DNA from: an uncultured Desulfosarcina sp.
Lineage (GTDB): Bacteria > Desulfobacterota > Desulfobacteria > Desulfobacterales > Desulfosarcinaceae
Assembly: GCA_963674945.2 (NCBI GenBank)
Contig: CAXXWQ010000003.1
Location: 1,152,001-1,216,000 of the forward strand
Reading direction: 5' to 3'
Length of the DNA stretch: 64,000 bases
In this document: positions 25,853-61,632 of the stretch, piece by piece
How positions within the stretch are numbered: position 1 is the stretch's first letter
Layout of the letters: every line of letters starts with the position of its first letter
The notes under the pieces: generated by a model
The model's database searches: none
The model's input: the letters and a program-made list of their open reading frames with translations, nothing else
What the model was told of the DNA's origin: nothing
Made by a program: the position numbers and the translations under genes

Positions 25853-25923
25853 GATTGATTGCAGAACAAATAAGATACAAAGCAATACCATTTATTCATC
25901 TTCAACTTTCGAGCGTTCGGGCG

Positions 25924-41699: not shown

Positions 41700-43265
41700 G
41701 TACGCATTCACAGGGTAACACCCATTGGATTAAATCCAGGAAAGGTTTGGCTCTAAATTTCGAAAATAGGAAGTAATGCACTCCACGAGAAAAGGAAAAG
41801 TCTGCTTTGCTTGTAAGCGACAGGTTTCTTTCAGTGACAATATCCGCTCAACCCAACGGTTTCCTTTCTCGCTTTGGGTGCCAAGGCTTCGTTTCCGCCA
41901 CAATACACCAAAGCGTAGCGCTCTTTCGGCACGATTGTTTGTGGGATCGACGCCCTTGTGATCCATAAACACCCATAGGTTGTTCATTTCCCGGATGATC
42001 TGCCGAGCGAGTTTTCCTGCATCCGTTTTATCGGGTTCCCAAAGGGACACGGTAAACAAGAAGAATGTATAAAAATCCGACCATTGCTTTGGGTCGGGTG
42101 GCTCTTTGGCAAACGATACCAGTTGTCTCAACCAAGCGGCGACGATTTCTCCGAAGCGACGTAAATCCGGCTTCTTTCTCTCCGCCAGAGAATCGGCCTT
42201 ACGGATTAGATGAGCCAGGCACGTCTGGCGGTGAACCCATTTTTGATACAGGCCGTAACCGTCGCTGACCAGAATGCCGTTCCAGTCCTGGATGAGTGCT
42301 TCGAAAGCCACCTTGGAGCGATGCGGGTCTATGCGATAGAAAGCAACCCGCTCGTTGACCATGGCCCACAGCCAGTGCAGATCGTTTTCTGTAAACCAGG
42401 AGGTCTCATCGATATAATTGCACCAGAAACTTCTGGCGATACCCCCGATACGTTCATACACAGGCAAAATCGCCATTGAAGTGCGGTCAACGATTTTTTG
42501 GATCGTCCCCGTAGCAATGGGAATGTCTAACACAGAGTCGCATAACTGCTTTACGTCCATTCGGCTCATCCCTTTAATACCGCTTAATTCACCAACAAAT
42601 GCGGTAAATCGGGGACCGTATCCGCTCGACAGGGCAGATGGCAGCTTGGCTTTGACAACCTTCCCGCAATTGGGGCAATCGCACTTGTGCAGAATATAGT
42701 GGCTGACTTCCATTTCGATTTTGGGAAGTTCGATCTGTTGATGGGTGTAAAAAGGCTTCATCTTTTCCTGATCGAACACCGAATGACCACAACTGCAGCA
42801 TTTTGGCATCAACGAATGTTGCTTTGTCGGCTCGAGCAGTTGTTGCTGGTGCGGTTTGTGTCCTTTTTGTCCGCCTTTGGATCGCTTGCTCTTTTTCTGT
42901 TTTCTTTTCTGCTTGCTAAAAGGCGGATCGGATGAGGGCGGTTTACTGGAATTACGAGAATTCATTTTGGTCTGGACTTCAAGTTTCTCTATGCGTTTTT
43001 CATGGGTCTCAACCCATTTTTGCATATCATGAAGCGCCTGTTCCAGATATAGGATGTAATTTCTCACCGCCTCTGGTGTCAGTTGCCAATCGAGTTCTGA
43101 AAATGGTCTTTTGAGTGCCATGAAAAGCACTCTAACATAGTTAAAAGAAAAAATCTAGATTTATTTTAAATTATTTCAGGCAGTTACGGTGCACACAATT
43201 TATGCTTTGTTTTCAATGGGTTAAAGGCCATGATGTCAGCCCTAAAATGCCCCGTGAACGGTTAC
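41700..43265 (-). mobile_element. IS66-family element (single-ORF type), 1566 bp
   Basis: Imperfect IRs GTACGCATTCACAGGG / GTAACCGTTCACGGGG; 8-bp TSD TGGTTATG at 41692-41699 and 43266-43273. Confidence 0.93.
41730..43121 (-). CDS. IS66-family transposase
   Basis: 'NSSKPPSSD', Zn-finger CxxC pairs, 'IDETSW', 'SDGY', 'QTCLAHLIR' and 'TNNRAERALR'. Confidence 0.95.
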   Translation of the reverse strand: MALKRPFSELDWQLTPEAVRNYILYLEQALHDMQKWVETHEKRIEKLEVQTKMNSRNSSKPPSSDPPFSKQKRKQKKSKRSKGGQKGHKPHQQQLLEPTKQHSLMPKCCSCGHSVFDQEKMKPFYTHQQIELPKIEMEVSHYILHKCDCPNCGKVVKAKLPSALSSGYGPRFTAFVGELSGIKGMSRMDVKQLCDSVLDIPIATGTIQKIVDRTSMAILPVYERIGGIARSFWCNYIDETSWFTENDLHWLWAMVNERVAFYRIDPHRSKVAFEALIQDWNGILVSDGYGLYQKWVHRQTCLAHLIRKADSLAERKKPDLRRFGEIVAAWLRQLVSFAKEPPDPKQWSDFYTFFLFTVSLWEPDKTDAGKLARQIIREMNNLWVFMDHKGVDPTNNRAERALRFGVLWRKRSLGTQSEKGNRWVERILSLKETCRLQAKQTFPFLVECITSYFRNLEPNLSWI

Positions 43266-43416
43266 TGGTTATGAAAGGATGTTGTTCATCCTGGTGGCCG
43301 CCGCCGGTTCCGTGGTGTGAATCGTCTCTCTTTATCGTCGAAACCGTAACCGAGTGCACCGACTGTGAATGGATAATATGATGCAGACGCAAAAAGAGAA
43401 CCGACGGGAAGCATCG

Positions 43417-45975
43417 ATGAAAACGAAGCTGACGGCATGGATGGGTCCGTTTCTCGGAGCAGTCCTGTTCTCCGTGGCCGTCTGGGTTCTGCACCGGGAA
43501 CTGGCGGCCTATCACTTCAAGGATATTGTCCATCAGATCAGCCTCATCCCCGTCTCGCGCGTGGCCGTTGCCCTGTTGTTGACCATTGTGGGCTACGGCA
43601 TCATGACCCTTTACGATCTTCTGGCCCTGCGATACCTGAAACATATGCTGGAATATGCCAAGATCGCCCTGGCCGCATTTGTCGGCGCCGCCTTCAGCAA
43701 CAACATCGGGTTCTCCATGATCGCCGGTGCGTCGGTGCGCTATCGGTTGTATACCAACTGGGGGCTCTCTTCCCTGGAAATCACCAAGGTGGTCTTTTTC
43801 TGCTCCCTGACCTTGTGGTTGGGATTTTTGAGCCTCGGCGGGGTGGTCTTTTTCCTGGTCCCCCTGACCCTGCCGGACCAGCTACATCTGCACGCTCTTT
43901 CCACTCACTTTATCGGACTATTGATGGCGCTTCCCGTGGCAGCATATCTGGTGGCGGGATTTTTTATAAAGACACCCCTGCACCTGCGCGATTGGCAACT
44001 CAACGTGCCTGGCTGGCGGACCGGTCTTCTGCAGGTTTTCGTGGGCGCGGCGGACTGGCTGCTCGCCGGCAGCGTACTGATCGCCTTGCTGCCACCGTCC
44101 GACCGTTTATCCCTGCCGCTGGTTCTGGGAATGTACCTTTTGGCCCAGTTGGCCGGACTGGTCAGCCAGGTTCCGGGGGGCGTAGGTGTGTTCGAAACGG
44201 CCTTCCTGCTCCTGATCGGCGACCGCTTGCCCGCTGAAACGGTCATGGGCGCATTGTTTACCTTCAGAATCATCTACTACCTCACCCCCCTTGCACTTTC
44301 GGCCCTGCTGCTGGGCGGCACCGAGATCCTTTTGCACCGGGAATCGGCGAAAAAGCTGGCCGCGAGTTATCATCGTTGGAGCGGCCCGTTGGTACCGCCG
44401 GTTCTGGCCTTTAGCACCTTCATCGCCGGGGCGGTCCTGCTCTTCTCCGGAGCGACTCCGGCCCTGGACTACCGTCTGGAATGGCTCAAGCAGGCGATCC
44501 CGCTTTCCCTGCTGGAAGTCTCACACCTTTCGGGCAGTATCATCGGCATGGGCCTGTTGCTGCTGGCCCGGGGACTCCAGCGCCGTCTCAACGGTGCCTA
44601 TTGGGTCACGGTAATCCTGCTGGGCGCGGGAATGGCCGCCTCCCTGTGCAAAGGCCTGGATTTCGAAGAGGCGCTTTTACTGGTGATCCTGTTGGCGGCC
44701 CTTTTGCCAAACCGGCGTTATTTTTACCGGCACACCTCCCTGCTCTACCAGCGCTTTACACCGGCCTGGATGGCAGCCATTGGTATGGTCGTCGTCGGTT
44801 CCCTCTGGCTGGGCATATTCTCTTACAAACACGTGGAATACCAGGGAGAATTATGGTGGCAATTCGCTTTTTATGCCCATGCGCCCCGTTTCCTGCGGGC
44901 CTCGGCCGGAGCCGCGGCCGTGCTGCTGCTCTTTGCCGTGGGCAGGCTGCTGCGGCCTGCCCGCCCCCGGCCCGGCCCTGTCAGTGCCGAAGATATGGAA
45001 ACCGTGGTCCGCATCGTCAAGAGCGATGCGGCAACCACCGCCAATCTGGCCCTGTTGGGAGACAAAGCATTTCTTCTCAATCCGGAAAACAGTGCCTTTA
45101 TCATGTATGCGGTGCAGGGCCGCAGCTGGGTGGCCATGGGAGATCCCGTGGGGCCCCAGGACGCTTGGCAAGAGCTGATCTGGCGGTTCCGCGAACAATC
45201 GGACCGGTTCGGCGGGTGGGCACTGTTCTATCAGGTGGCGCCGGAGGGACTGTCCTATTACCTGGATCTGGGACTCACCCTGACCAAACTGGGAGAAACC
45301 GCCCGCGTTCCGATAGACAGCTTTTCATTGGAGGGCAGCCATCGCAAGGGACTGCGATACACCCAACGCAAGATGGAAAAGGAGGGACTCTCCATGGAAG
45401 TGCTGCCCGCCGATCAAGCCATGGCGCAGTTCGATTCCCTCGAGCGGATTTCCGATGCCTGGCTGACCGAAAAAAACACACATGAAAAAGGATTCTCCCT
45501 CGGTCGTTTCAGTAGGGATTATTTACGCCATTTTGACGTGGCGATTGTCAAAAAACGCGATGCCGTCGTCGCTTTCGCAAATCTCTGGAAGGGAGCGGAC
45601 AACGCCGAACTCTCCATGGACCTGATGCGCTATGATCCAACCGCGGCACCGGGTGGCGTGATGGATTATCTTTTCATCGAACTGATGCTATGGGGCAGGG
45701 AAAAGGGGTATGGATGGTTCGATCTGGGCATGGCGCCGCTCTCCGGTCTGGCCGATCGCTCCCTGGCGCCGCTGTGGAACCGCCTGGGCGGGTTTCTATC
45801 GCGCCACGCCGGTCATTTCTACAATTTCGAGGGATTGCGCCAGTACAAGGATAAATTCGATCCGGTGTGGGAGCCACGCTATCTGGCGTCTCCCGGGGGC
45901 CTGGCACTGCCGGTGATTATTGCCCAACTGGTCCAGTTGATTTCCGGTGGAATCAAGGCAACCATCGCCAAATGA
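43417..45975 (+). CDS. mprF: Bifunctional aminoacyl-phosphatidylglycerol flippase/synthase
   Basis: Multi-TM flippase domain, 'MGDPVG', 'DLMRY', 'LGMAPLSG' and 'YNFEGLRQYKDKF'. Confidence 0.92.
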   Translation: MKTKLTAWMGPFLGAVLFSVAVWVLHRELAAYHFKDIVHQISLIPVSRVAVALLLTIVGYGIMTLYDLLALRYLKHMLEYAKIALAAFVGAAFSNNIGFSMIAGASVRYRLYTNWGLSSLEITKVVFFCSLTLWLGFLSLGGVVFFLVPLTLPDQLHLHALSTHFIGLLMALPVAAYLVAGFFIKTPLHLRDWQLNVPGWRTGLLQVFVGAADWLLAGSVLIALLPPSDRLSLPLVLGMYLLAQLAGLVSQVPGGVGVFETAFLLLIGDRLPAETVMGALFTFRIIYYLTPLALSALLLGGTEILLHRESAKKLAASYHRWSGPLVPPVLAFSTFIAGAVLLFSGATPALDYRLEWLKQAIPLSLLEVSHLSGSIIGMGLLLLARGLQRRLNGAYWVTVILLGAGMAASLCKGLDFEEALLLVILLAALLPNRRYFYRHTSLLYQRFTPAWMAAIGMVVVGSLWLGIFSYKHVEYQGELWWQFAFYAHAPRFLRASAGAAAVLLLFAVGRLLRPARPRPGPVSAEDMETVVRIVKSDAATTANLALLGDKAFLLNPENSAFIMYAVQGRSWVAMGDPVGPQDAWQELIWRFREQSDRFGGWALFYQVAPEGLSYYLDLGLTLTKLGETARVPIDSFSLEGSHRKGLRYTQRKMEKEGLSMEVLPADQAMAQFDSLERISDAWLTEKNTHEKGFSLGRFSRDYLRHFDVAIVKKRDAVVAFANLWKGADNAELSMDLMRYDPTAAPGGVMDYLFIELMLWGREKGYGWFDLGMAPLSGLADRSLAPLWNRLGGFLSRHAGHFYNFEGLRQYKDKFDPVWEPRYLASPGGLALPVIIAQLVQLISGGIKATIAK

Positions 45976-46019: not shown

Positions 46020-46153
46020 TTCTTTTTGGCGCTGGTGGCGATATCCCCGAACACCACTCCCAACGCCGCGACGGCAAGCTTGACCAGTCGGCCGTCGGTT
46101 TTGTTTGGGGACTTTTCTCCTGCGGTCTTCTCCGGATTGGGAGTATTATTCAT
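46020..46153 (-). pseudogene. kup: Kup K+ transporter, N-terminal stub
   Basis: 'LAVAALGVVFGDIATS' followed by loss of homology. Confidence 0.75.
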
Positions 46154-46625
46154 TTCGGTTCGCTGATAACTGTTTTATCAGATTCAATATCTCTTGATTG
46201 GAAGGTATATCGGCCATCGAATGGCCGTAATGCACATATCGGAGCATGCCGGATGTATCAACGAGCATCTGTGCCGGCATTCTCCCCAGCTTGAAAATTG
46301 CGACCTTCTGGCCATATAACTTCAGAACAACGTGTTCCGGGTCTGGCAGCCCGATAAACGGCAAATCTTCATTTATCCAGTATTTTTCAAATGACTCGGC
46401 ATTTTCCGGTCCAACAACAACGATTTCCGTATTCAATTTGACGAAACGTTTATAGTCCTGGCGCAACTGCGCCATATGCCTTTGGCAAAACGGTCAGAAA
46501 AAACCACGGTTCAGGACCACCAGAACATTTTTTCTCTTTCTATAATCAGAGAGTGATACGCGGTTTCCATGAAAATCCGGCAGCGTAAATTCCGGAGCAT
46601 GGGTGTTCAGTTCGACTCTGGGCAT
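46146..46625 (-). CDS. Peroxiredoxin-like (AhpC/TSA) selenoprotein, UxxC, 159 aa
   Basis: 'MPRVELNTHAPEFTLPDFHGNRVSLSDY..VLVVLNRGFF-TGA-PFCQRHMAQL'. TGA at 46496-46494 is followed by hairpin TGGCGC-AGTT-GCGCCA. Confidence 0.9.
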
Positions 46626-50316: not shown

Positions 50317-50592
50317 TTGGGTTCATTGGTGATCATCAAAGAGCTGCTGACATGGCGGGCTGCCGTTGACATCCTGCTGATTACGGCACTGCTGTTCTTT
50401 TTGTACCACACATTGCTTCGCTTGGGAACATGGGCCATATTCACCGGTATTTTGCTGGCCATGGCCTTTTTTTCGTTGCCAATTTTCTCGACCACCGTGT
50501 TTTGCAAGATCATCGCACCACCGGCAATTCAACCGGTGGACAAACGCTGGCCGGATGTCCAGGTCACGGTCGAAGTTTCACCCATCCCGTGA
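50317..50592 (+). pseudogene. Probable diadenylate cyclase (CdaA/YbbR-fusion type) remnant with the catalytic core deleted
   Basis: CdaA-like TM start 'WRAAVDILLITALLFFLY' fused at ~50490 to a short C-terminal 'CKIIAPPAIQPVDKRWPDV'. No DGA/RHR motifs remain. Confidence 0.55.
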
Positions 50593-50643: not shown

Positions 50644-51090
50644 ATGTTTACGAAAATCCTTTTCCCCACCGACTTTTCAGACAATGCGCAGCGGGCGGTA
50701 GCGTATATCAAACAATTGAAGGAGGCGGGAAGCCAGGAGGTGGTGCTGCTGCACGTCATCAACCAGCGCATTATCGACGGGTTGACCCGCCATGGCGTGT
50801 TGGAAACCGACGCTGAGAAGTGGAAAAAAGGCGTCAAGGCCGTTGCCGAGGAATCCCTGGGTGAGATCGGTAATTCCTTGGAGAAAGTCGGTTTCTCGGT
50901 CAAACGCATTATCAAAACCGGTTATCCCTCGAGCGTTATTCTTGATTTTGAAAAGCAGGAGAAGCCGTCGATTATCGTCGTCGGTTCCCATGGCCGCTCG
51001 AATCTCACCGACATGCTGTTGGGATCCGTATCCGATCGGGTGATTCGAAAATCCAAGTGTCCGGTGCTGGTGGTCAAACGAGACGACTAA
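50644..51090 (+). CDS. Universal stress protein
   Basis: 'KILFPTDFS' and 'GSHGRS..LLGSVSDRV..SKCPVLVV'. Confidence 0.93.
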   Translation: MFTKILFPTDFSDNAQRAVAYIKQLKEAGSQEVVLLHVINQRIIDGLTRHGVLETDAEKWKKGVKAVAEESLGEIGNSLEKVGFSVKRIIKTGYPSSVILDFEKQEKPSIIVVGSHGRSNLTDMLLGSVSDRVIRKSKCPVLVVKRDD

Positions 51091-51095
51091 AAAAA

Positions 51096-54029
51096 ATGAA
51101 ACGCTGTATCTCACGTTGCTGTTACAAACTCGTGCTGGTTCCCTGGCTTGTGTTCGCCCTGCCATGTATCTCCTTTTCCCAGAGCCACACACCTGAATCC
51201 CTTACCGCCATGATCCGGCAGTTCAAACTCGATCCCAAAGGACCGTACAGCGCCATCGGCTGGTTCTGCCCGGACGGCACCATCCTTGCCGCCCAGCTGC
51301 GTTGCAACGGTCCGGGCGGACACCAGCATGCCGTCTTGAAACCGGCAGTAAAGCAATTGGCCGAAGCCGAAGGGCTCTATTGGGGACAGATACTTGCAGG
51401 GACACCCCATGGGGATTTCCTTGATGTCGAAAGACAATTCGACCGTCTCAAACAGTACCAGATGGAGCGGTATCTTCAACGGGTGGACGACGGATGGATA
51501 CTGCGCCAGGCCCGCTATTATCGCGGCGCCATCCAGTTCGAGGACGAATCCGCCTGGGGCGTCGAATTTTTCAAGGCGATCCTCGCAGACGATCACCTGG
51601 TGACGTCTCAGTTTTTTCTCATGCGTCAATGCGCCAGAGATATTCCCCATTTTGCCGATGACGGAAGGTGGAAGAAAATCCGTGCGGACGCCCAGGCCAT
51701 CGCAGAGGCCGAGCCCTCGTTCACCCCCCTTCGGATCAAGCTTCACGGTCAACCCGACCCCAAAGACACAAATTTGCTGGGACGTTTTCTGGCCGATCAT
51801 GACGACCTGCCTTCTCCTCTCAAAGATAAGATTCGGCAACTGATTCTCGATGTCGACGATGCCTTTGGCACCGGAAGGAATAAGGTGCTGGAAAGCTTCG
51901 CTCCACGACTTTCCAAGGAGAGCGAAAGCCTGCGGATGCTTGCCGATCTTATCAATATCATCGGCTCTTCGAAAACCGGTGAATCAAACGACAGCCGGAG
52001 AATGAGAAGAAAGGAACTGGCCGCACTCCTGGAACAACTCCGTGCGGATATCCTCATACAGGATTCTCCCGTCAAGCGATTGGCCATGTTTGACCTCTCC
52101 ACAACCGTGGAAACGGAATTGTTCATGGAGAGCGTCGCCTGGCATCCCGCCACCGTGAAGGAATTGCTTGAAAAAATCGCACTTCTGACAAAGGCTTGCA
52201 TGGGGGCCGGTTACCTGGAACAGTGGGAGTGGATGCAGGTGGCGCCGTTTCTCGCCGATCCGTCCGGAACCAATCCGATGGATCTGAAGCAGCTGACGGC
52301 CATCGGGGAGACCGCCCGCCGGATAACCGACTGGGGTGCGGCCATGGTGCGGGCCCACTACGCGGCCCTGACGAAGCGGTATCGGGAATTCGAGCCCAAG
52401 GCCGCCGGATTCATGGACGACCGGATCAGGGATTCGCTGCTTTTGCCCCTGGGTGATGCCGTCTCCCGTCTGCATGCATTGATTGCCACGTTGGGCGTCG
52501 GCTCCTCCCGAGTCATGGATCTGACCGACACCTCCGGGATTCGGGGGGTGAATCCGGGTGTCGCCACGGGCACCCTGGTAGTAATGGACAATGCCCTTCT
52601 GGATAGCGCCTGGTCTGCCAGGGATATCGTCGTGATGCGACATGCGCCGCCGGATCTCAAACCGGTGGCCGGTATCGCAACGGTCGGCGAAGGTAACATC
52701 GTCTCCCACGTTCAACTGCTGGCCCGCAACCTGGGCATTCCCAACGCCGTCATCGCCGAAGCCGACTTGGAGCGACTCCGTTCCCACGCCGGAAAAACGG
52801 TGTTTCTTGCCGTCTCTCCGGGGGGAACGGTGGTCATGAAGACGTCCGAAACCATGACTTCGGAGGAAAAATTCTTATTCGAAAGCCGCCGCCCATCCGA
52901 AGAGCGTATCCATGTGCCCATGGATCGAATCGATCTTGAACGGGTCATGCCGGTCCCCCTGGTGGAACTCACAGCATCGGATTCCGGACGTTGGTGCGGT
53001 CCCAAGGCCGCCAACCTGGGTCAACTCAAACACGATTTTCCCGACCATGTGGTCAACGGGTTCGTCATTCCCTTCGGCGTCTTTCGGCGGCATATGGATC
53101 AGACGATGCCGGAAACCGGCATCTCCTATTGGGACTTCTTGCAGCAGACCTTCGTGAACAATCCGGAGAAGAAGTTGGAATCGGCCGGTCGGGAATCCGA
53201 AATTCTGGCACGTCTCGGCTATCTTCGTCAGACAATGAATCGCATGCCCCTCATGCCGGATTTTGTGGAGGCCGTCCGATCCTGTTTCATCGATCTTTTG
53301 GGGGCGCCCATGGGACAGTTGCCGGTGTTCGTGCGTAGCGACACCAACATGGAGGACCTCAAGGACTTTACCGGTGCCGGGCTGAACCTGACCGTCTTCA
53401 ATGTCAGGGACGAAGACCGTATTTTTCAGGCCATCCGGGACGTGTGGGCATCGGCCTATTCCGAACGCAGCTTTCTCTGGCGACAGCGATTGTTGACCAA
53501 TCCGGAAGCCGTCTATCCATCCATCCTCATCATACCCTCCGTAAGGGTCGACAAATCCGGCGTGATCATCACCACCGGTCTCTCCGGCGGCTGCCCGGAC
53601 GATCTTACGGTGGCATTTTGCCGCGGTGCGGGAGGTGCCGTCGAGGGACAGATGGCCGAAACGTACCGGCTGTCACCGGGCGAACGGACGCTGCTGCTCT
53701 CTCCGGCCCGGGAAATCATGTACACCGTGCTGCCCGAAACCGGAGGCGTGGACAAGGCAATGACCGGTTTCGACAAGCCCGTTTTGAGCGAGACGGAACG
53801 GATTGCATTGCATGAGATGGCGCAAACCATCCGGCGGCGACTCGCCGAACCGCATGGCGGCGCAAACGGTCCCTGGGACATCGAGTTGGGTTTTCAGGAC
53901 GGTCGCATCTGGCTGTTTCAGGTCAGGCCGTTCGTGGCGAACAAACTGGCGAAATCAATGACCTATCTGGACAGCCTGGATCCACCCCTGCAGAACCGAA
54001 AAATCGCCATGGATATGGCCTTGCCATGA
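51096..54029 (+). CDS. Exported PPDK/PEP-synthase-family dikinase with glucan-water-dikinase-like domain order
   Basis: Signal peptide, ~480-aa helical N-domain, phospho-His 'VSHVQLLARNLGIPN', then ATP-grasp 'GPKAANL', 'VRSDTNMED..FTGAGL', 'DIELGF' and 'FQVRP'. Confidence 0.8.
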   Translation: MKRCISRCCYKLVLVPWLVFALPCISFSQSHTPESLTAMIRQFKLDPKGPYSAIGWFCPDGTILAAQLRCNGPGGHQHAVLKPAVKQLAEAEGLYWGQILAGTPHGDFLDVERQFDRLKQYQMERYLQRVDDGWILRQARYYRGAIQFEDESAWGVEFFKAILADDHLVTSQFFLMRQCARDIPHFADDGRWKKIRADAQAIAEAEPSFTPLRIKLHGQPDPKDTNLLGRFLADHDDLPSPLKDKIRQLILDVDDAFGTGRNKVLESFAPRLSKESESLRMLADLINIIGSSKTGESNDSRRMRRKELAALLEQLRADILIQDSPVKRLAMFDLSTTVETELFMESVAWHPATVKELLEKIALLTKACMGAGYLEQWEWMQVAPFLADPSGTNPMDLKQLTAIGETARRITDWGAAMVRAHYAALTKRYREFEPKAAGFMDDRIRDSLLLPLGDAVSRLHALIATLGVGSSRVMDLTDTSGIRGVNPGVATGTLVVMDNALLDSAWSARDIVVMRHAPPDLKPVAGIATVGEGNIVSHVQLLARNLGIPNAVIAEADLERLRSHAGKTVFLAVSPGGTVVMKTSETMTSEEKFLFESRRPSEERIHVPMDRIDLERVMPVPLVELTASDSGRWCGPKAANLGQLKHDFPDHVVNGFVIPFGVFRRHMDQTMPETGISYWDFLQQTFVNNPEKKLESAGRESEILARLGYLRQTMNRMPLMPDFVEAVRSCFIDLLGAPMGQLPVFVRSDTNMEDLKDFTGAGLNLTVFNVRDEDRIFQAIRDVWASAYSERSFLWRQRLLTNPEAVYPSILIIPSVRVDKSGVIITTGLSGGCPDDLTVAFCRGAGGAVEGQMAETYRLSPGERTLLLSPAREIMYTVLPETGGVDKAMTGFDKPVLSETERIALHEMAQTIRRRLAEPHGGANGPWDIELGFQDGRIWLFQVRPFVANKLAKSMTYLDSLDPPLQNRKIAMDMALP

Positions 54030-54047
54030 TCCGTCCATGACCCGGAT

Positions 54048-54100
54048 TCGTTGTATTCAAAGACCTGCTTTTGGATATCCGGCCCATGATCGGATATCCA
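54048..54100. repeat. REP-like palindromic element, copy 2
   Basis: tcgttgtattca..tgcttt-tggatatccg-N9-cggatatcca. Confidence 0.6.
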
Positions 54101-54163
54101 GACCGCCTGCTTTGCGGGTGGTCGTTGACCGGACCGGTTGCCAACCTCGAAGGAGTAGATTCC

Positions 54164-55450
54164 ATGGTGCCTGCCTTTTCCATAAATCGATACTTTTGCA
54201 CATTTTGCATTCTCTTTGCCATTTTGGTCGTCGTGGGAAACAAATTCCCGGCACATGCCTACCCCATGGATGGTTACGAGACTACCGGAATTCGCCGACT
54301 GGTCTATCTGCAGCGGGTCCAGAGCGGTCAGATCAACGGTCCCGTAAGGCCCGCCGGCGCCTTGAAGGGCATGGCGGAGATCCGGTTGAATCTGACCGAC
54401 GCCCCAAACAACCTGCTCGATAGATTGCCTTCACCGGATGTCCAACTACAGGCCCGGCTGGAGGCCCTGTTTCCAAACCGGGACGAAAGTTATTCGGTGA
54501 TGGTGCTGGACATCACCCCGGGAAAGCCCTGGCGCCTGGCCGGCCGCCAGGCCGACCGCTCCTTTTCACCGGGAAGCGTCGGAAAACTGGCCATCGCCGC
54601 CGGCATCTTCACGGAACTGGCACGTATTTTTCCCGACGATCCTTCACGGCGTCAGGCCCTGTTAAAAGAGCGCCAGGTGGCCGGCGGCCCCTGGATCCAC
54701 ACCGACAGTCACCCGGTGCCCATCTTCGATCCGGATTCCAATCAACTGACATCGAGACCGGCCGAGGAGACGGATGTCTTCTCTTTATACGAGTGGATGG
54801 ACCACATGCTTTCGGCAAGCGCCAACGCGGCGGCCAGCGTGGTGTGGAAAGAGCTGTTGCTCATGCGTCAATTCGGGCAGAATTATCCGCCGACAATGGA
54901 ATTGGAACGCCGGTTTTTCGATCAAACGCCGAAAGGGTATCTGCGGGACACGGCCATGTCCACGGTCAATGACCCATTGCGGGCCATGGGCATCGACCAG
55001 GCCCAGTGGCAGCTGGGCAGCTTTTTTACCTCGGGAGGGAAAAAACGGGTGCCGTCCGGTGGAAAGAGCTATGCAACGCCCGAAGGGTTGATGCGCTATC
55101 TGGTAGCCATGGAACAGGGCCGGATCGTGGATCCTTGGTCCAGCCTGGAGATCAAACGTCTCATGTACATGACGGCCAAACGGATCCGCTACGCCTCCTC
55201 ACCGGCGCTGAACAATGCGGCGGTGTATTACAAGTCCGGCAGTCTGTACCGCTGCAAGCCCGAACCGAATTTCAAGTGCATGAAATATCATGGGAATGTG
55301 GAAAATGTGATGAATTCCGTGGCAATCGTGGAGCAGCCGGACGGTCGCGTCTACCTGGTGACCCTCATGTCCGACGTGAGATATAAAAACTCCGCCGTGG
55401 AGCACCAGAGCCTGGCCACATTTATCGATGGAATTCTCAAATCACCATAG
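54164..55450 (+). CDS. Exported class-A beta-lactamase-fold serine hydrolase
   Basis: Signal peptide ending AHA; SxxK 'SVGK', SxN 'SAN' and 'KSG'; GAAGGAG RBS. Confidence 0.8.
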   Translation: MVPAFSINRYFCTFCILFAILVVVGNKFPAHAYPMDGYETTGIRRLVYLQRVQSGQINGPVRPAGALKGMAEIRLNLTDAPNNLLDRLPSPDVQLQARLEALFPNRDESYSVMVLDITPGKPWRLAGRQADRSFSPGSVGKLAIAAGIFTELARIFPDDPSRRQALLKERQVAGGPWIHTDSHPVPIFDPDSNQLTSRPAEETDVFSLYEWMDHMLSASANAAASVVWKELLLMRQFGQNYPPTMELERRFFDQTPKGYLRDTAMSTVNDPLRAMGIDQAQWQLGSFFTSGGKKRVPSGGKSYATPEGLMRYLVAMEQGRIVDPWSSLEIKRLMYMTAKRIRYASSPALNNAAVYYKSGSLYRCKPEPNFKCMKYHGNVENVMNSVAIVEQPDGRVYLVTLMSDVRYKNSAVEHQSLATFIDGILKSP

Positions 55451-55458
55451 ATAGCGGC

Positions 55459-58287
55459 TTACGCAATGTAGCCGAATTTTCTCAGCAGCCGACCGGCGAC
55501 AATTCGAACCGGGGGATGGGCAACGGCCATCAGTTCGGCGACAAGACCGGCATACGCATCGGATTGGAGTCGTTCGATGAGGGAAAGGGCCGTAAGTTGA
55601 AGATCTGCATCGGACTCCGGAAGCATCTGGGAAAAGGCATCGAGTTGCGAAGGGACCTGACCACCGACCCGTAAAATGGTTTGTTCGATCAGAGGGTTCA
55701 CCAACGCCGTTTCCACGATGGGAATCAAGGTATGCTTCAGATCGGCTTCCAGGAGATTGTCCAGAAACTCCACGGCATTGGCGCGAAGGTCTGGCTGGTC
55801 GCTCACCACGCCGTTATAAGCCCGGGAAATATCCCCGATGGGATATTTTAATCCCAATAGTCTGAATATCCGATCCAGGTTGACATCCAGCCTCTTTTCG
55901 ATTTTTCGGGCCAGTTCAAGGCGCAGGTGGTGAAGTGCCGGATCAGACGCCGACGAGACGTTTGTCTGATGATACAATGCGGCCAGCATGTGGATATGGC
56001 ATCGAGCTTCTTGTAAAATCGCGTGAACCACTGCTTGATGGTCGAATCGAAGATCCCTGTTATGGATGCGCATATGATAGAGAACGCGGATGATTTCGTG
56101 CCGGATACATGGATCCGTTTGATTCAGATTGTCGAGCAGCACCGCCGCGGCGGCCTGGGAGTCGAATGATTCCAGGACGTCCGGGACCAGGCACCGAATC
56201 TCATGGTCCACCAGCGGATTGGCCAGACAGTTGGCCAGCAGCGGATAGATTTCGGGACCGAACTGCCGTAAGGCTTCGCCGCAATGGCCCTTCAGATCCG
56301 GTATCTTGATTGTTTCGAGGATCATCGGCACAAAGGATTCGTGGCGGGTCTCGCCTGCTGCTTTGACGGCCGCCTTGACGACATCGGAAGCCGTATCGTG
56401 CAAAAAAACGTGTAAATAGGGAAACAGCGAGGGAATGTTGGCGGCACCGATGGCGGCAACACAGATGCGCTTTTGTACCACTGTTTGATCGGGGTTCTTC
56501 TCCAGGCAAATCTGTTTGAGCAGGCCGCCGATGACATCATGGACCCGCAAGGATTCCCGTAATCGATGATTTCGCCGGCTCTCCCTGGCGGCGCAGATCA
56601 GGGCGCCGCCGCTGATGGCCATGTCAGGGCTCTTCATGAATTCCCCCAGCATGGTCTGCCGGTTCTTGCCTCCATGCCGGAAGAGGTAGTGCATGGCTTC
56701 GGTCAAAACAGCGATGTCGCTTTCGGCACCATTATCGGCGACCAATTGGCGGACCGCCGTTTGGATCCTTTGGTCATGGTACGAATAGCCGCATTTGAGC
56801 GCCTCCAATCGGACTTCGGCAGACGGATGGCCGACCAGACGGCAAAGGCTGGGCACCAGCCGTTTGTTATGGAAATTTCGGATCATCTTCAATGTCAGAA
56901 GGATCTGCTCGACATTGTCGCCGTCCAGGACCCGGATGATGTCGCCGACGATGGAGGCGTTGGGGAGAAGTGGCGGGGCTGCCGGTTCATCCGTTTCATT
57001 TTTCTCGGTCAGCGAGAAGAGAAACGCTTCGATATAAGCCTTTCTGATCTTCGTGATGAGAAAGCACCAGAGGCCGACCAGAACGATGGTTAAAATGGCG
57101 GCCGGTCTCACCGAAAGGCCGTACAGGGCGGATATGGCCAAAAGCAGAAGGCCGCCAATACCGGTGGCCGTGCTGTCCACGATGACATCGATGAAGGTCT
57201 TGGCCTGGTTTTTGATTTCCCTGGGGACCGGTAGCATGATCAGTTCCAGGGCGGCCTTGTTGACTGAATTTTTTAGGCTGCCGTCTCCCACCTTGATAAA
57301 GATCGCCGCCCACAAGGCTGGCTGAATGAGAATCAAAACAGCCCCGACGGCAATGGTCATGGGCAGGAAAAAGAGGGAGACACCCACACCGATCATTCCC
57401 ACCACGCGGCGGGTGACGAAGACCTGAATTACCAGGGAGAACAAGTTCAGGGTGGAGAGCCAGAAGCCGAAAAAGGCGGCCAACTGGTCGGCTTCTGGGA
57501 TCTGTGACGTGGCCACCACACTGAATTGGTACTCCACCAGTTTGGCCACGATCACGCTCAGCCCAATGATTCCGGCAAGAAGGCTCAGGTGACGGGAACG
57601 GGCGATGGCCACCAGAGGATGATGGGGTTCCTTGACGGCCTGCTCCTGTTGCCGGATGCGCTGAAGATGCTGGTCGTCGATGGTGTTTTGATAGAGGCGC
57701 TTTGCCAATAGAATGCAGGTGGACAGGCAGCCGGCGCCGACGAGGATCAAGTTTTCGCTTCCCACCCAATGGGCCAGCACATTGGTCAGATACCCGCCGA
57801 AAATTCCTCCTGCAATGGCACCGGCACCGACCACGCTGAACAGGCGGCGGGCTTCCCGGGGGTTGAAGATGGTGTTGGCCAGAATCCAGAACTGGGAAAC
57901 GATGATCAGTCCGGTGATGGCGGTCCAGATGTAGAGGATGAAAACCGTGTAGGACCTGAGGGAAATCGTCAGCAGCCCCGCCCACATGAGCGTCATGGCG
58001 AAAATGGAGGCCTGCAAGGTCCTTATGATCAGCCGGAAAAAATCGATGCGGTGCAACCATTTCGAATACAATGAGAGTGCCGCGGCGGCAAATACGGACA
58101 CGGCAATGAAGGCAAAGGGAAGACGCCCCGCCCCGAAAGTGGAGAGAAAAAGGGCGTTGGTCACCGGCTTGACGATCATCAAGGTGGTGATCACCAAAAA
58201 GATATAGGCGAACATGAGGGAGACCCGCAATCCCTCGCCCTGGCGGATATCCATGGACCTGCCGATCCAGTTTTTATCGATGCGCAT
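55459..58287 (-). CDS. NTT/TLC-type (Npt1/Npt2-like) nucleotide translocase fused to HEAT repeats
   Basis: ~12 TM domain with 'IVKP', 'SQFW..AN..F.PREARRLF', 'EYQF' and 'ELIMLPVP...K..AKTFID', followed by ~500 aa of HEAT-like repeats. Confidence 0.82.
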   Translation of the reverse strand: MRIDKNWIGRSMDIRQGEGLRVSLMFAYIFLVITTLMIVKPVTNALFLSTFGAGRLPFAFIAVSVFAAAALSLYSKWLHRIDFFRLIIRTLQASIFAMTLMWAGLLTISLRSYTVFILYIWTAITGLIIVSQFWILANTIFNPREARRLFSVVGAGAIAGGIFGGYLTNVLAHWVGSENLILVGAGCLSTCILLAKRLYQNTIDDQHLQRIRQQEQAVKEPHHPLVAIARSRHLSLLAGIIGLSVIVAKLVEYQFSVVATSQIPEADQLAAFFGFWLSTLNLFSLVIQVFVTRRVVGMIGVGVSLFFLPMTIAVGAVLILIQPALWAAIFIKVGDGSLKNSVNKAALELIMLPVPREIKNQAKTFIDVIVDSTATGIGGLLLLAISALYGLSVRPAAILTIVLVGLWCFLITKIRKAYIEAFLFSLTEKNETDEPAAPPLLPNASIVGDIIRVLDGDNVEQILLTLKMIRNFHNKRLVPSLCRLVGHPSAEVRLEALKCGYSYHDQRIQTAVRQLVADNGAESDIAVLTEAMHYLFRHGGKNRQTMLGEFMKSPDMAISGGALICAARESRRNHRLRESLRVHDVIGGLLKQICLEKNPDQTVVQKRICVAAIGAANIPSLFPYLHVFLHDTASDVVKAAVKAAGETRHESFVPMILETIKIPDLKGHCGEALRQFGPEIYPLLANCLANPLVDHEIRCLVPDVLESFDSQAAAAVLLDNLNQTDPCIRHEIIRVLYHMRIHNRDLRFDHQAVVHAILQEARCHIHMLAALYHQTNVSSASDPALHHLRLELARKIEKRLDVNLDRIFRLLGLKYPIGDISRAYNGVVSDQPDLRANAVEFLDNLLEADLKHTLIPIVETALVNPLIEQTILRVGGQVPSQLDAFSQMLPESDADLQLTALSLIERLQSDAYAGLVAELMAVAHPPVRIVAGRLLRKFGYIA

Positions 58288-58372
58288 GTGTCCGATTTTC
58301 CTGTCGCTGGTAAGGGTGGGGAATATTATCCGGCAAAGCAATTTCAGCGCACACACTGCTACCAGATGAAAT

Positions 58373-58642
58373 TCACAATGAATAACTCCGGTAATAATCC
58401 CCCCCGCCCTTGACCTTCAGATTGATGGCGACGGTGGACAGCGAAACACTGGTCAGCACGGAGATGAGGCTGGCGATGCCGATGATCACCAGCGCGCGGG
58501 CCAGGCCGGCACTGCCCACCACATATCCGGTTCGCAGGAAAAGGATGATTCCCAGGATGGTTAATATGCTCGGTGTGAAAACACCTGTAAAAGTACTCAG
58601 GGTGCCGGTGGTACTGTTACCATTCGTATTTTTTTCGTCCAT
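58373..58642 (-). pseudogene. Cation-chloride cotransporter (SLC12)-like permease, N-terminal stub
   Basis: 'TFTGVFTPSILTILGIILFLR' and 'KGGGDYY', then a premature end. Confidence 0.8.
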
Positions 58643-58704
58643 AACATCACCAGTTAAAAATCACGCTCTATTGTAAAATGAACCGTTGACTCCGTTGTTT
58701 AGAA

Positions 58705-60420
58705 TCATTCCGTGATTTTCTTTTTTTTCTCTTCCATGATTTCCTTGGTATCCAAGGCGCGGTCGAAATTATTGATTTGCTCATGGGTAAGCAGCAGATC
58801 TTTCATGCCGTAGATCTGCATCCGGCAAGATTGCGTGAACAACCGGTTTACCAAAAGAAGAGATGCGATTTCCATCTCCTGTACTTTTTCCTCGGCCACG
58901 GCGGCGAGGGTGTTTTGAATAAAACGTTTATCGGCCTCTTCGATATGCACGAAAACCGTCAACAGACTCCGGTACTGGCCTTCCTTATCCGTCATGGCCA
59001 GAATCCGGCCCATATTGTGGTAAAGTTCCACCAGGCGTTTGCGAAATAATTTATACTGGGTATTCAGATAAACATTGTCCGAACCGTCGAACTCATCCAT
59101 GTTATGCCTCACGCCTTTAAAATTTTTAATTGAATTCATCATGTTACGCGAGGCATAGATCAATCGCTCCATCTCCTTGGTTTCCGTTTCCGTTACCTTT
59201 TGGACCTGTACTTTCGAATAAAATGTAAAGATGGCGGCATGTAATAGTTTGATACTCTCATAGAGTTCTTCAAGTGTATATTTCTTCTTCCTATTGTTTT
59301 CAAACGGCAAGTCCGTGTCGAATATCAGTTTTTCATCTATTCGCAGCAATCGGAGATTGTAGAGCTGGCATTCCTGCAGCAGATGACCGATTTCTTTTCG
59401 CAGCGCGGCAATCGCCGCATCGGTGATTTCGGGAGGCGTCTGGTCAAGATATACGGTCAGAATGGTTTTGTGATCCGGATAGATCCGCGTGAGCAATCGG
59501 GAAAAGAAACTCAGAAAGGGAAAAAACAGCAGTACGCCCAGCATATTGAAAAGCGTGTGGAAGAGTGCCAGTCCCATCAGGCTGTCGGATTGAATGCCCA
59601 CGAACCACCCGATTATCCTTACAAAAACAGGAAGTCCGATAAAAGCAACCGCGCCGGTGGCGGTATTGAACACCAAATGGCTTAGGCTGACTCTTTTTTT
59701 TACGGGTACTCCGCCGATGGCTCCGAGCAAAACGGTTATGGTGGTACCGATGTTGGCTCCAATGACCATAACCGCGCCGATTTCGAAGGTTATCAGCCCA
59801 CTGTGTAGCGCAGTCAATACAATGGCGATGGTGGCGGCACTGGCCTGCATCAAAGCAGTAAAAAAAGTGCCGGCCAACAGGTAAAACCAGAGCCCGTAGT
59901 CGGGCAATTGATCCAGGCTGAAGGTTTTTGCAAAGGTCTCCACGCTGCCTTTCATGAAATCCAAACCCAGAAATAGAAAACCGAAACCGATGAACAACCT
60001 CGTAACGAGAAACGGTTTGGAAGAGGGTCTGAAAAGAATCAGGCCGACGGCCCCCAATCCGATAAACGGCAGCGCCATGCTCTCGATTTTAATCTTGAAG
60101 CCAATGGTGGCGATTATCCAGGCGGTCAGGGTCGTGCCGATGTTGGAACCCATGATCACGCCGATGGCGTTTTCCATGTTCATGACGCCGGCTCCCACAA
60201 ACGCGAGTACCATGAGCGAAACCGCCGAACTGCTTTGTAGCAGCGCGGTGACAAGGGTTCCGCTGCCGATGGCCCGCAGTCTGCCGTCCGTGTAGGTCCG
60301 GATGATGCGCCTGAAAGCCCTGCCGGATAATAATTTGACCGACTCCTCGATTAAAAACATGCCGAACAGAAATATACCGAGTCCGGCCAGCATTTTCCAA
60401 AAATCGAAATCAGCCGTCAT
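58705..60420 (-). CDS. Na/Pi cotransporter family protein
   Basis: 'LQSSSA', 'GSNIGTT' and 'GANIGTT' repeats. Confidence 0.9.
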   Translation of the reverse strand: MTADFDFWKMLAGLGIFLFGMFLIEESVKLLSGRAFRRIIRTYTDGRLRAIGSGTLVTALLQSSSAVSLMVLAFVGAGVMNMENAIGVIMGSNIGTTLTAWIIATIGFKIKIESMALPFIGLGAVGLILFRPSSKPFLVTRLFIGFGFLFLGLDFMKGSVETFAKTFSLDQLPDYGLWFYLLAGTFFTALMQASAATIAIVLTALHSGLITFEIGAVMVIGANIGTTITVLLGAIGGVPVKKRVSLSHLVFNTATGAVAFIGLPVFVRIIGWFVGIQSDSLMGLALFHTLFNMLGVLLFFPFLSFFSRLLTRIYPDHKTILTVYLDQTPPEITDAAIAALRKEIGHLLQECQLYNLRLLRIDEKLIFDTDLPFENNRKKKYTLEELYESIKLLHAAIFTFYSKVQVQKVTETETKEMERLIYASRNMMNSIKNFKGVRHNMDEFDGSDNVYLNTQYKLFRKRLVELYHNMGRILAMTDKEGQYRSLLTVFVHIEEADKRFIQNTLAAVAEEKVQEMEIASLLLVNRLFTQSCRMQIYGMKDLLLTHEQINNFDRALDTKEIMEEKKKKITE

Positions 60421-60476
60421 ATTGGTACCTGCCGATCCGGTTTACATCGATTCTCATACGTCCGATTTTCCTGCCG

Positions 60477-61589
60477 CTATGGGGCGGTGGGTACAGATGA
60501 TACCGGGGAACCTGGCCCCGGCCGGCTTTGCATGAGAGCGGGCGCGGTTTCGAGCGCTTTACCCGATCCTGATTTGGGTCTGCCCGTTCGTTCCATCAGG
60601 CTGTCAATGACATCGATCAGCTGTTTCATGATTTCCTCCCCCTGGGGATCTTCGATCAGGGCCACGGCGATGTATCGTCGCCAGACCGGCCCCCATATCA
60701 ACACCGAGTCGCTGTGCCATATCTTCCAAGTACCGGATTTTCTGAACAGCGCCGCTCCCGGCACGCGTTTTTCCAACGCGCCGACGAATTTGTGATGCAA
60801 TTTGGGATCGGCCAGCATTTCCAACATCTGTCCACTCCGCTCGTGACTCACCAGCTTTCCCATGGCAAGCAGATAATAGAACCGGCAAACCTGAGTGGCG
60901 GTGGCAGCATGGGAGAGCCCTTGCATCGCTTCGGGATGGCGTTCACCCGTAGCCGCATACCGTTTTCCCACCCACAATCCACCGCCCCGTTCCGGGTTGT
61001 AGAGCCGGTATTTGGGCGATTTCAATACCTTTTCAATGTAATCGAATTCCAGGCGATCGATCATGCGGGTCGCCGCCTGATTGTCCGATTTGCTGATCAT
61101 TTGTTGCATATCGTTCAGGACCTCGGGCGTCTCCTGTATATGGCCATCTTCCAACGCATGGGCAGATGCCAGGAGTACGGCGATTTTTGGAAGGCTGGCC
61201 GCATACATCATCACCCTGCCATTGATTCGCGCGAAACGCACATTTTCCGGATCACTGATATCGACGACGCCGATGGCCATTTTCTTTTCACGAATCAGCC
61301 TTCGCCATTTGGGATCGGCTTCGACCGTTTTTTTCAGGTCGGATTCCATCCGCTTATCGACGAGGTTGTACAGGGAAATGACTTCCTTTCCACGGCGGTC
61401 ATAGGGCAAGGGGACCTTGTTTGCACAATAACCGGGGGAAACCTTCGCAACAATCACAAAAAGGACGATAAAGGTGGTCTTGATGGCTGCGTTCAATGCA
61501 ATACCGGATGACACGAATTCTTCTCTTTTCGTAATGAGACCGAAATAAAAGCATCTCGTATGAAACGTGATCATGGACTTCGTTTCCAT
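60477..61589 (-). CDS. Class-A beta-lactamase-fold serine hydrolase, probably exported (start uncertain)
   Basis: 'AASLPK', 'SDN' and 'KSG' motifs; N-terminal hydrophobic segment. Confidence 0.83.
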   Translation of the reverse strand: METKSMITFHTRCFYFGLITKREEFVSSGIALNAAIKTTFIVLFVIVAKVSPGYCANKVPLPYDRRGKEVISLYNLVDKRMESDLKKTVEADPKWRRLIREKKMAIGVVDISDPENVRFARINGRVMMYAASLPKIAVLLASAHALEDGHIQETPEVLNDMQQMISKSDNQAATRMIDRLEFDYIEKVLKSPKYRLYNPERGGGLWVGKRYAATGERHPEAMQGLSHAATATQVCRFYYLLAMGKLVSHERSGQMLEMLADPKLHHKFVGALEKRVPGAALFRKSGTWKIWHSDSVLIWGPVWRRYIAVALIEDPQGEEIMKQLIDVIDSLMERTGRPKSGSGKALETAPALMQSRPGPGSPVSSVPTAP

Positions 61590-61616
61590 TTTTCATGAAT
61601 CGTCATGTGTTTTGGT

Positions 61617-61632
61617 AGCAGTTTGTATGCCA
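61617..61632 (-). promoter_or_regulatory. Sigma-54 promoter
   Basis: Minus strand TGGCATACAAACTGCT. Confidence 0.7.

Follow-up and report, generated by a model that had tools for sequence, protein, structure and literature searches.

The glucan water dikinases GWD and PWD are treated as hallmarks of eukaryotic starch metabolism in the available text of PMC12892837, PMC13666283 and bioRxiv 10.64898/2026.09.25.754361. Fusions of an NTT-family nucleotide carrier to C-terminal HEAT repeats are described as widespread and uncharacterised, with none assayed, in the available text of Major et al. 2017 (PMC5381601), which does not mention the partner genes reported below. EstG of Caulobacter, in the available text of its report, is a beta-lactamase-fold periplasmic enzyme that acts on periplasmic glucan (bioRxiv 10.1101/2022.04.12.488081). 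Here, a locus at positions 51096..61632 of a 64,000-nt window (the whole stretch analyzed; contig CAXXWQ010000003.1, positions 1,152,001-1,216,000, uncultured Desulfosarcina sp.) was examined. It carries genes for an exported dikinase (DIK), two predicted exported serine acyl-enzymes (SH1 and SH2) and an NTT-HEAT carrier, which form a genuine conserved module across several bacterial phyla. The combination suggests that nucleotide is fed into the periplasm to phosphorylate an envelope sugar polymer. Each part is a known fold; the combination and the compartment are new, and a full-text literature search, with supplements outside its scope, found no published description of the module.

DIK (977 aa; 51096..54029) and SH1 (54164..55450) form a plus-strand block, and the minus-strand block holds NTT-HEAT (942 aa; 55459..58287), a permease stub, a Na/Pi cotransporter and SH2 (60477..61589, with the true start probably at 61514 or 61496). 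The four module genes are each single-copy in the 7.08-Mb host genome. Homologues of DIK were examined at 80 GTDB loci, of which 74 also carried SH1, 59 NTT and 56 SH2. In the 52 of these loci whose sequence continues for 6.5 kb or more beyond DIK (loci with room), SH1 was present in 51, SH2 in 50, NTT in 47 and all four genes in 47, with the convergent arrangement DIK> SH1> <NTT <SH2 in nearly every case; for four of five loci without a neighbouring NTT, an NTT of the same type (>1100 bits) lay elsewhere in the genome. These locus surveys cover close-type dikinases, as searches seeded from a distant subfamily returned only close-type genes. A reverse search from the NTT in metagenomes recovered, at loci with room, SH2 in 40/54, SH1 in 40/55 and DIK in 32/44; the NTT loci without partners were mostly sister NTT-HEAT genes, many of which lie amid kinases, response regulators and phosphatases and precede a gene for a cyclic nucleoside monophosphate (cNMP)-binding protein. 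Among 301 unselected Bacteroidota genomes, in which related genomes are not independent, DIK, SH1, SH2 and NTT (>830 bits) picked out the identical eight, seed included, and the next NTT scored 617 bits. In the window's own phylum DIK occurred in one of 300 other genomes, there with all four genes in order, and in the class of genome G305 it occurred in 12 of 86. The expectation of the sequence-only reading that these genes travel together beyond this genome was therefore borne out for the four core genes.

Flanking genes outside the module recurred in at most 11 of 81 loci, and the Pfam names of 130 flanking proteins revealed no common theme. The nearest loci are deltaproteobacterial and include that of a Desulfosarcina metagenome-assembled genome (∼71% DNA identity). 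In a quick IQ-TREE tree of 46 dikinases, which omits 35 of the 81 loci because they lack four full-length genes, Bacteroidota, Calditrichota and Thermodesulfobacteriota were kept apart; with the phyla separated, a recent inter-phylum transfer of the module was unsupported, and patchy loss fits equally well. Distance correlations among the four genes were 0.70-0.84, uncorrected for kinship, and were not counted as evidence. The module had no match among 72,556 plasmid records and none among viral contigs.

The sequence-only reading had proposed a five-gene system in which a Na/Pi symporter recaptured phosphate. The symporter was found at none of the 80 dikinase loci and at three of 80 NTT loci, all three of them without DIK, SH1 and SH2. 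In the window, the Na/Pi cotransporter (58705..60420) and the 89-aa stub of an amino-acid/cation-chloride permease (58373..58642), both on the minus strand within an insert and outside the module, are flanked by two 52-bp minus-strand copies of the NTT start: copy 1 (58257..58308) is the true NTT start region, and copy 2 (60427..60478) is a leftover NTT 5' end directly after the SH2 stop. In two relatives, SH2 runs straight into NTT with nothing between. Because the two copies bracket the symporter and stub while these relatives join SH2 to NTT, the symporter is a local insertion without a conserved role in the module. The five-gene version and the recapture of phosphate were thus ruled out by the 0/80 loci and the bracketed insertion, and the four-gene core (47/52 loci) stood.

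DIK has a predicted Sec signal peptide (51096..51179), an N-terminal helical acceptor domain (aa 42-480; 51180..52496), a phospho-histidine swivel domain (52506..52904) with H551 at 52707-52709 within SHVQLLARN, and a C-terminal ATP-grasp (PPDK_N) domain (aa 628-967; 52938..53957) with the motifs GPKAANL, RSDTNMEDL, GAGL, DIELG and FQVRP, where residue numbering counts from an upstream GTG at 51057. The catalytic set is intact, and the His domain precedes the ATP-grasp domain, as in glucan water dikinases. Signal-like, hydrophobic N-termini were present in 114/120 close and 62/69 distant full-length dikinases, versus 24/120 GWD-like and 5/98 PWD-like controls, which were drawn from bacterial comparison sets of at least 120 homologues each, many of which JGI annotates as alpha-glucan or phosphoglucan, water dikinase. 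Both the predicted export of dikinase homologues and the earlier description of a PPDK-family enzyme with a signal peptide, intact ATP-grasp motifs and a phospho-His therefore held, the residues being conserved. The profile of the His and ATP-grasp domains matched PWD-like proteins with a probability of 99.7 (E 2e-26). DIK scored 79.8 bits against the PEP synthase model TIGR01418 (cut-off 739.75). It is not a GWD, because it reached 11.2 bits against PF22973 (GWD1_pHisD), under the 27-bit cut-off and far from the 90-95 bits of bacterial GWD/PWD-like controls, and lacks a starch-binding domain: no PF23166 or CBM family was among the 25 of 32 families listed for 50 members, and no Ig-type domain was seen in that part of the DIK model. 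Periplasmic ATP synthesis by the dikinase was set aside on thermodynamic grounds, since a water dikinase with a sugar phosphate as product should not work in reverse.

The N-terminal domain, which carries no annotation, is probably a remote homologue of the pre-His domain of PWD/GWD. When 77 DIK N-domains, truncated so as to exclude the His domain, were aligned by hhalign to a merged PWD and GWD pre-His profile, a probability of 90 (E 1.7e-6) and a score of 56.4 over 267 collinear columns were obtained; the null maxima, from column- and block-shuffled templates (20 each), were 23.7, 28.2 and 24.4, and a HEAT control gave 20.1. The distant dikinase subfamily alone (18 sequences) reached a probability of 91.7 (E 7.6e-7) against the merged profile, the N-domain stripped of the 90 residues that adjoin the His domain reached 76 (E 2.2e-5), and 76 PWD-like sequences alone gave 75-85 (75.6, E 2.4e-5, in one run). 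The motifs RDI[AP]H, KxH..PxD, D[LI]..LE and D.IR.S are common to both sides, and the conserved residues of the N-domain are the pair C71/C83, R156, R209, R226, H230, D237, R329 and R458. ESM Atlas matches of 0.75-0.84 (GWD clusters 0.80-0.81), below 0.9, were taken as a lead only, and whole-protein fold searches are a scant test of this domain. Since the domain appears to align with that of glucan kinases, a glycan acceptor is indicated; the homology favours a sugar hydroxyl as acceptor without naming the sugar, and the earlier idea of a glycan acceptor gains support from it. By the same comparison, a regulatory switch in which DIK phosphorylates SH1, SH2 or some other protein of the envelope is highly unlikely, even though the module is self-contained and SH1 is nearly always the next gene. 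In the window's phylum, bacterial GWD-/PWD-like genes (PF22973, 95-115 bits) were observed in 5 of 201 genomes (L180-L184; G169, G041, G199, G077 and G151), and the one at L183 adjoins GH57, alpha-amylase and GT4/GT5 genes.

SH1 carries S105-x-x-K108, S186-x-N188 and KSG, and SH2 carries SLPK, SDN and KSG. As the sequence-only reading had described, both combine SxxK/SxN/KSG motifs with export signals: the motifs were invariant in 52/52 SH1 and 49/49 SH2 homologues, and signal-like N-termini were seen in 69/69 and 54/54. The two are distant paralogues (profile comparison probability 84, E 8e-6); the best solved match of SH2 was PBP-A (TLL2115; E 3e-4), and SH1 has a conserved Cys pair, C331/C339. 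The deacylating Glu166 of class A enzymes was not kept at the position presumed equivalent, which was placed by the class A motif spacing and not by structural superposition: invariant Phe255 (SH1) and Tyr154 (SH2) stand there, and the SH2 stretch holds no invariant acidic residue. SH1 and SH2 are thus unlikely to be efficient beta-lactamases.

The serine proteins bear on two further explanations. DIK could act as an ATP-driven periplasmic ligase, converting a carboxylate, such as the D-Ala of a trimmed stem peptide, into an acyl-phosphate that would acylate the active serine of SH1 or SH2 before transfer to an amine or hydroxyl. Acyl phosphates do acylate serine beta-lactamases, both serine proteins keep the full catalytic set without the class A deacylating Glu, SH1 follows DIK in 51/52 loci, and the PPDK-family condensing enzymes PigC/RedH score against the DIK ATP-grasp domain (E 4e-18); the alignment of the acceptor domain with glucan-phosphorylating PWD/GWD, whose acceptors are hydroxyls, makes this scheme improbable. 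Alternatively, DIK might, like rifamycin phosphotransferase, phosphorylate an antibiotic of the glycosylated or polyhydroxy kind, with SH1 and SH2 trapping beta-lactams. Rifampin phosphotransferase is the nearest solved ATP-grasp structure, and two partners have a beta-lactamase fold; however, DIK scored 52.7 and 34.7 bits against the NCBIfam models, far under their cut-offs of 999 (NF041857) and 1700, its ATP-grasp domain is not N-terminal, the deacylating Glu is absent, no plasmid record matched, and the dikinase tree separates the phyla, unlike that of a mobile resistance gene. Such detoxification is very unlikely.

NTT-HEAT is, as judged by its profile and fold matches, an NTT-family inner-membrane carrier. 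PF03219 matched with 29.7 bits, over the 21-bit cut-off; the NTT1 structures 9j3n/9j3m/9j3l were the best Foldseek matches of the model, a profile comparison with NTTs gave E 1e-28, and the fusion to C-terminal HEAT repeats, without a cNMP-binding domain, was confirmed in the window protein. Several transmembrane charges of NTTs are also kept. The pore of module NTTs has its own signature: K40, K339, D371, K/R249 and a non-cationic residue at 43 were each found in 61/61 (the window protein has K249, D371 and T375), versus R43 in 13/19 and N249 in 12/19 related NTTs from other contexts. In genome G308, divergent SH1 and SH2 genes adjoin a HEAT-less NTT (L185:500-4016) with Asp at the place of E245 and Lys at that of K527 (AtNTT1 numbering), and DIK lies on another contig. 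From this one case, the carrier rather than the HEAT tail is suggested to be what the module needs.

Based on these results, a mechanism is proposed in which NTT-HEAT would release a nucleotide, most likely ATP, to the periplasm in exchange for AMP, which is taken back. DIK would pass the beta-phosphate of ATP to H551 and then, in the manner of glucan water dikinases, to the hydroxyl of a sugar, and SH1 and SH2, without the class A deacylating Glu, would serve as slow acyl-transfer, esterase or peptide-binding enzymes, acylating or deacylating the same polymer. The acceptor would be an envelope glycan common to all hosts; sugars of peptidoglycan or muropeptides are the simplest guess, given the penicillin-binding fold of the partners and the lack of any glycosyltransferase or uptake receptor in the module. 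We give this reading, with an ATP/AMP exchange and peptidoglycan sugars as the most likely acceptor, a probability of about 0.4. The broader proposal, namely that free-living diderms export ATP through a dedicated NTT-family carrier and that a periplasmic GWD/PWD-related dikinase phosphorylates a cell-wall or other envelope glycan, as a bacterial counterpart of the plastid pairing of NTT and glucan water dikinase, is offered tentatively, its chance falling somewhat short of even. The probability that the proposed mechanism and its four rival explanations leave over belongs to a wrong localisation or to other schemes.

Several observations weigh against this mechanism. For the acceptor domain, the close dikinase subfamily alone gave a weak match to the merged PWD and GWD profile (probability 25, E 7.5e-4), the comparison with GWD alone was not significant (probability 0.2-0.5), and a merged PWD and GWD hidden Markov model left the window DIK outside the top 8 of the 11,449 open reading frames of its own genome. 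For the acceptor itself, OpgG/MdoG was found in 0/5 and a glycoamylase in 3/5 of the module genomes tested, so a shared periplasmic-glucan (OPG) pathway was not supported and a polymer common to all hosts is favoured; GT5 was present in 5/5, and also in 12/14 controls. Peptidoglycan in this role is what we infer. In the phylum of genome G302, four draft genomes that carry DIK were searched for the NTT; two gave no match and two matched distant types only. For the carrier, AtNTT1 residues were mapped through K71/E161/E301/K443 of chain 9j3j, a single offset of 84 fitting all four by our own count. Of K155, E245, E385 and K527, module NTTs retain only E385: the place of K155 lies within an alignment gap, and in 43/43 sequences Ala/Ser/Gly/Thr replaces E245 and Thr/Ser replaces K527. 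Mutants of AtNTT1 at K155 and K527 lose nucleotide binding, and K527 is needed for ATP binding, in the available text of PMC3306366; K527 is thought important for triphosphates in that of PMC4256464. Known NTTs import ATP, and no NTT-HEAT protein has been assayed, according to the available text of PMC5381601. As K155, E245 and K527 are absent, ATP export is only something we infer; NTTs of T. hominis altered at three of these residues still carry ATP.

These losses and the module-specific pore (non-cationic 43, K/R249 and D371) would also fit an NTT that is a product importer or sensor and not an ATP exporter. The dikinase would then use environmental or leaked ATP, and the carrier would take up AMP or a phosphorylated sugar or muropeptide, or would signal through its HEAT repeats. 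Sister NTT-HEAT(+cNMP) genes sit amid histidine kinases, response regulators, phosphatases and PhoU/NaPi genes, and the periplasm-targeted enzyme Lig E appears to use extracellular ATP, although extracellular ATP is reported to be merely nanomolar (both in the available text of bioRxiv 10.64898/2026.03.22.713542). The HEAT-less NTT beside SH1 and SH2 in G308 argues against HEAT signalling being essential. We regard the importer or sensor as rather unlikely, though a real contender.

Further observations were made on the carriers and the surroundings of the module. The host genome encodes a second, distant NTT-HEAT-cNMP fusion (1074 aa; contig C1, L161:5380-11104) behind adenylate/guanylate cyclase and FGE-sulfatase genes. 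Sister NTT-HEAT genes occur at L085, L087, L104, L105, L107, L123, L128 and L159. Most of them are accompanied by a single-domain response regulator and by a split gene for cNMP binding; their surroundings hold hybrid kinases, Omp85 barrels, metallophosphoesterases, alkaline/acid phosphatases and PhoU+NaPi genes, and three of the loci have a second NTT, which is HEAT-less. MscS-type channel genes, one of them Pfam-named, lie within 10 kb of the module in 11/81 loci (L011, L017, L034, L035, L036, L039, L041, L042, L066, L070 and L077), a count not compared with a background rate. A PPK2 gene, which could recycle AMP/ADP, lies directly 3' of the dikinase in two related genomes (L189:9352-10092 and L190:9083-9832) and in 0/160 other loci. 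Insertion and decay mark this region of the window, with truncated CdaA (50317-50592), AhpC/TSA (46146-46475) and cation-chloride permease (58373-58642) genes and an IS66 transposase (41730-43130). The window also contains an intact MprF-type aminoacyl-phosphatidylglycerol synthase gene (43369-45975) and a conventional PEP-synthase-type gene (25855-28554; PPDK_N, then PEP-utilizer domain). Promoter and terminator scans of the region gave results near chance.

The periplasm is usually treated as ATP-free. In the module an exported dikinase comes with a nucleotide carrier dedicated to it, which makes a deliberate periplasmic ATP supply directly testable, and the hosts include marine Flavobacteriaceae that are in culture and accessible to genetics (Flagellimonas, Maribacter, Aquimarina and Arenibacter). 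If the proposed mechanism is true, free-living diderm bacteria would possess an ATP-dependent pathway of extracytoplasmic polysaccharide phosphorylation, and an undescribed envelope phosphoglycan is predicted. The starch-dikinase acceptor domain would come to include a family of exported bacterial proteins, a point relevant to how GWD/PWD arose, and a first concrete functional handle would be gained on NTT-HEAT proteins, uncharacterised according to the available text of the 2017 survey (PMC5381601). The window itself contributed the exclusion of the symporter with a visible insertion scar, the unselected phyletic profile, the direct homology test of the acceptor domain against PWD/GWD and the altered NTT pore.

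Compared with known systems, DIK shares with GWD/PWD the sequence of acceptor domain, His domain and C-terminal ATP-grasp domain, but differs in its Sec-type signal, in having no starch-binding Ig/CBM domain, in its location outside glycogen gene clusters and in its SxxK and NTT partners. Unlike rifamycin phosphotransferase and PEP synthase, it has a C-terminal ATP-grasp domain and no pyruvate TIM barrel or rifamycin domain, and it is exported. The module NTT resembles AtNTT1/CpNTT1 in its PF03219 match, NTT fold, E385 and several transmembrane charges; unlike AtNTT1-type exchangers, it does not keep K155, E245 and K527, and its association is with periplasmic enzymes, not with parasitism. With the NTT-HEAT fusions in the available text of Major et al. 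2017 (PMC5381601) it shares the NTT domain and C-terminal HEAT repeats, the cNMP-binding domain being absent from the module NTT. SH1 and SH2 carry the SxxK, SxN and KSG motifs of the class A beta-lactamase-like PBP-A, and differ from it as separate families that have an aromatic residue in place of the deacylating one and, in SH1, insertions of their own; EstG of Caulobacter, as far as its available text goes, is set beside them by fold and function, and not by sequence. Lig E, as portrayed in the available text of bioRxiv 10.64898/2026.03.22.713542, is like DIK an ATP-using enzyme with a signal peptide; unlike the present module, it comes without a carrier gene of its own and apparently depends on ATP from outside the cell.

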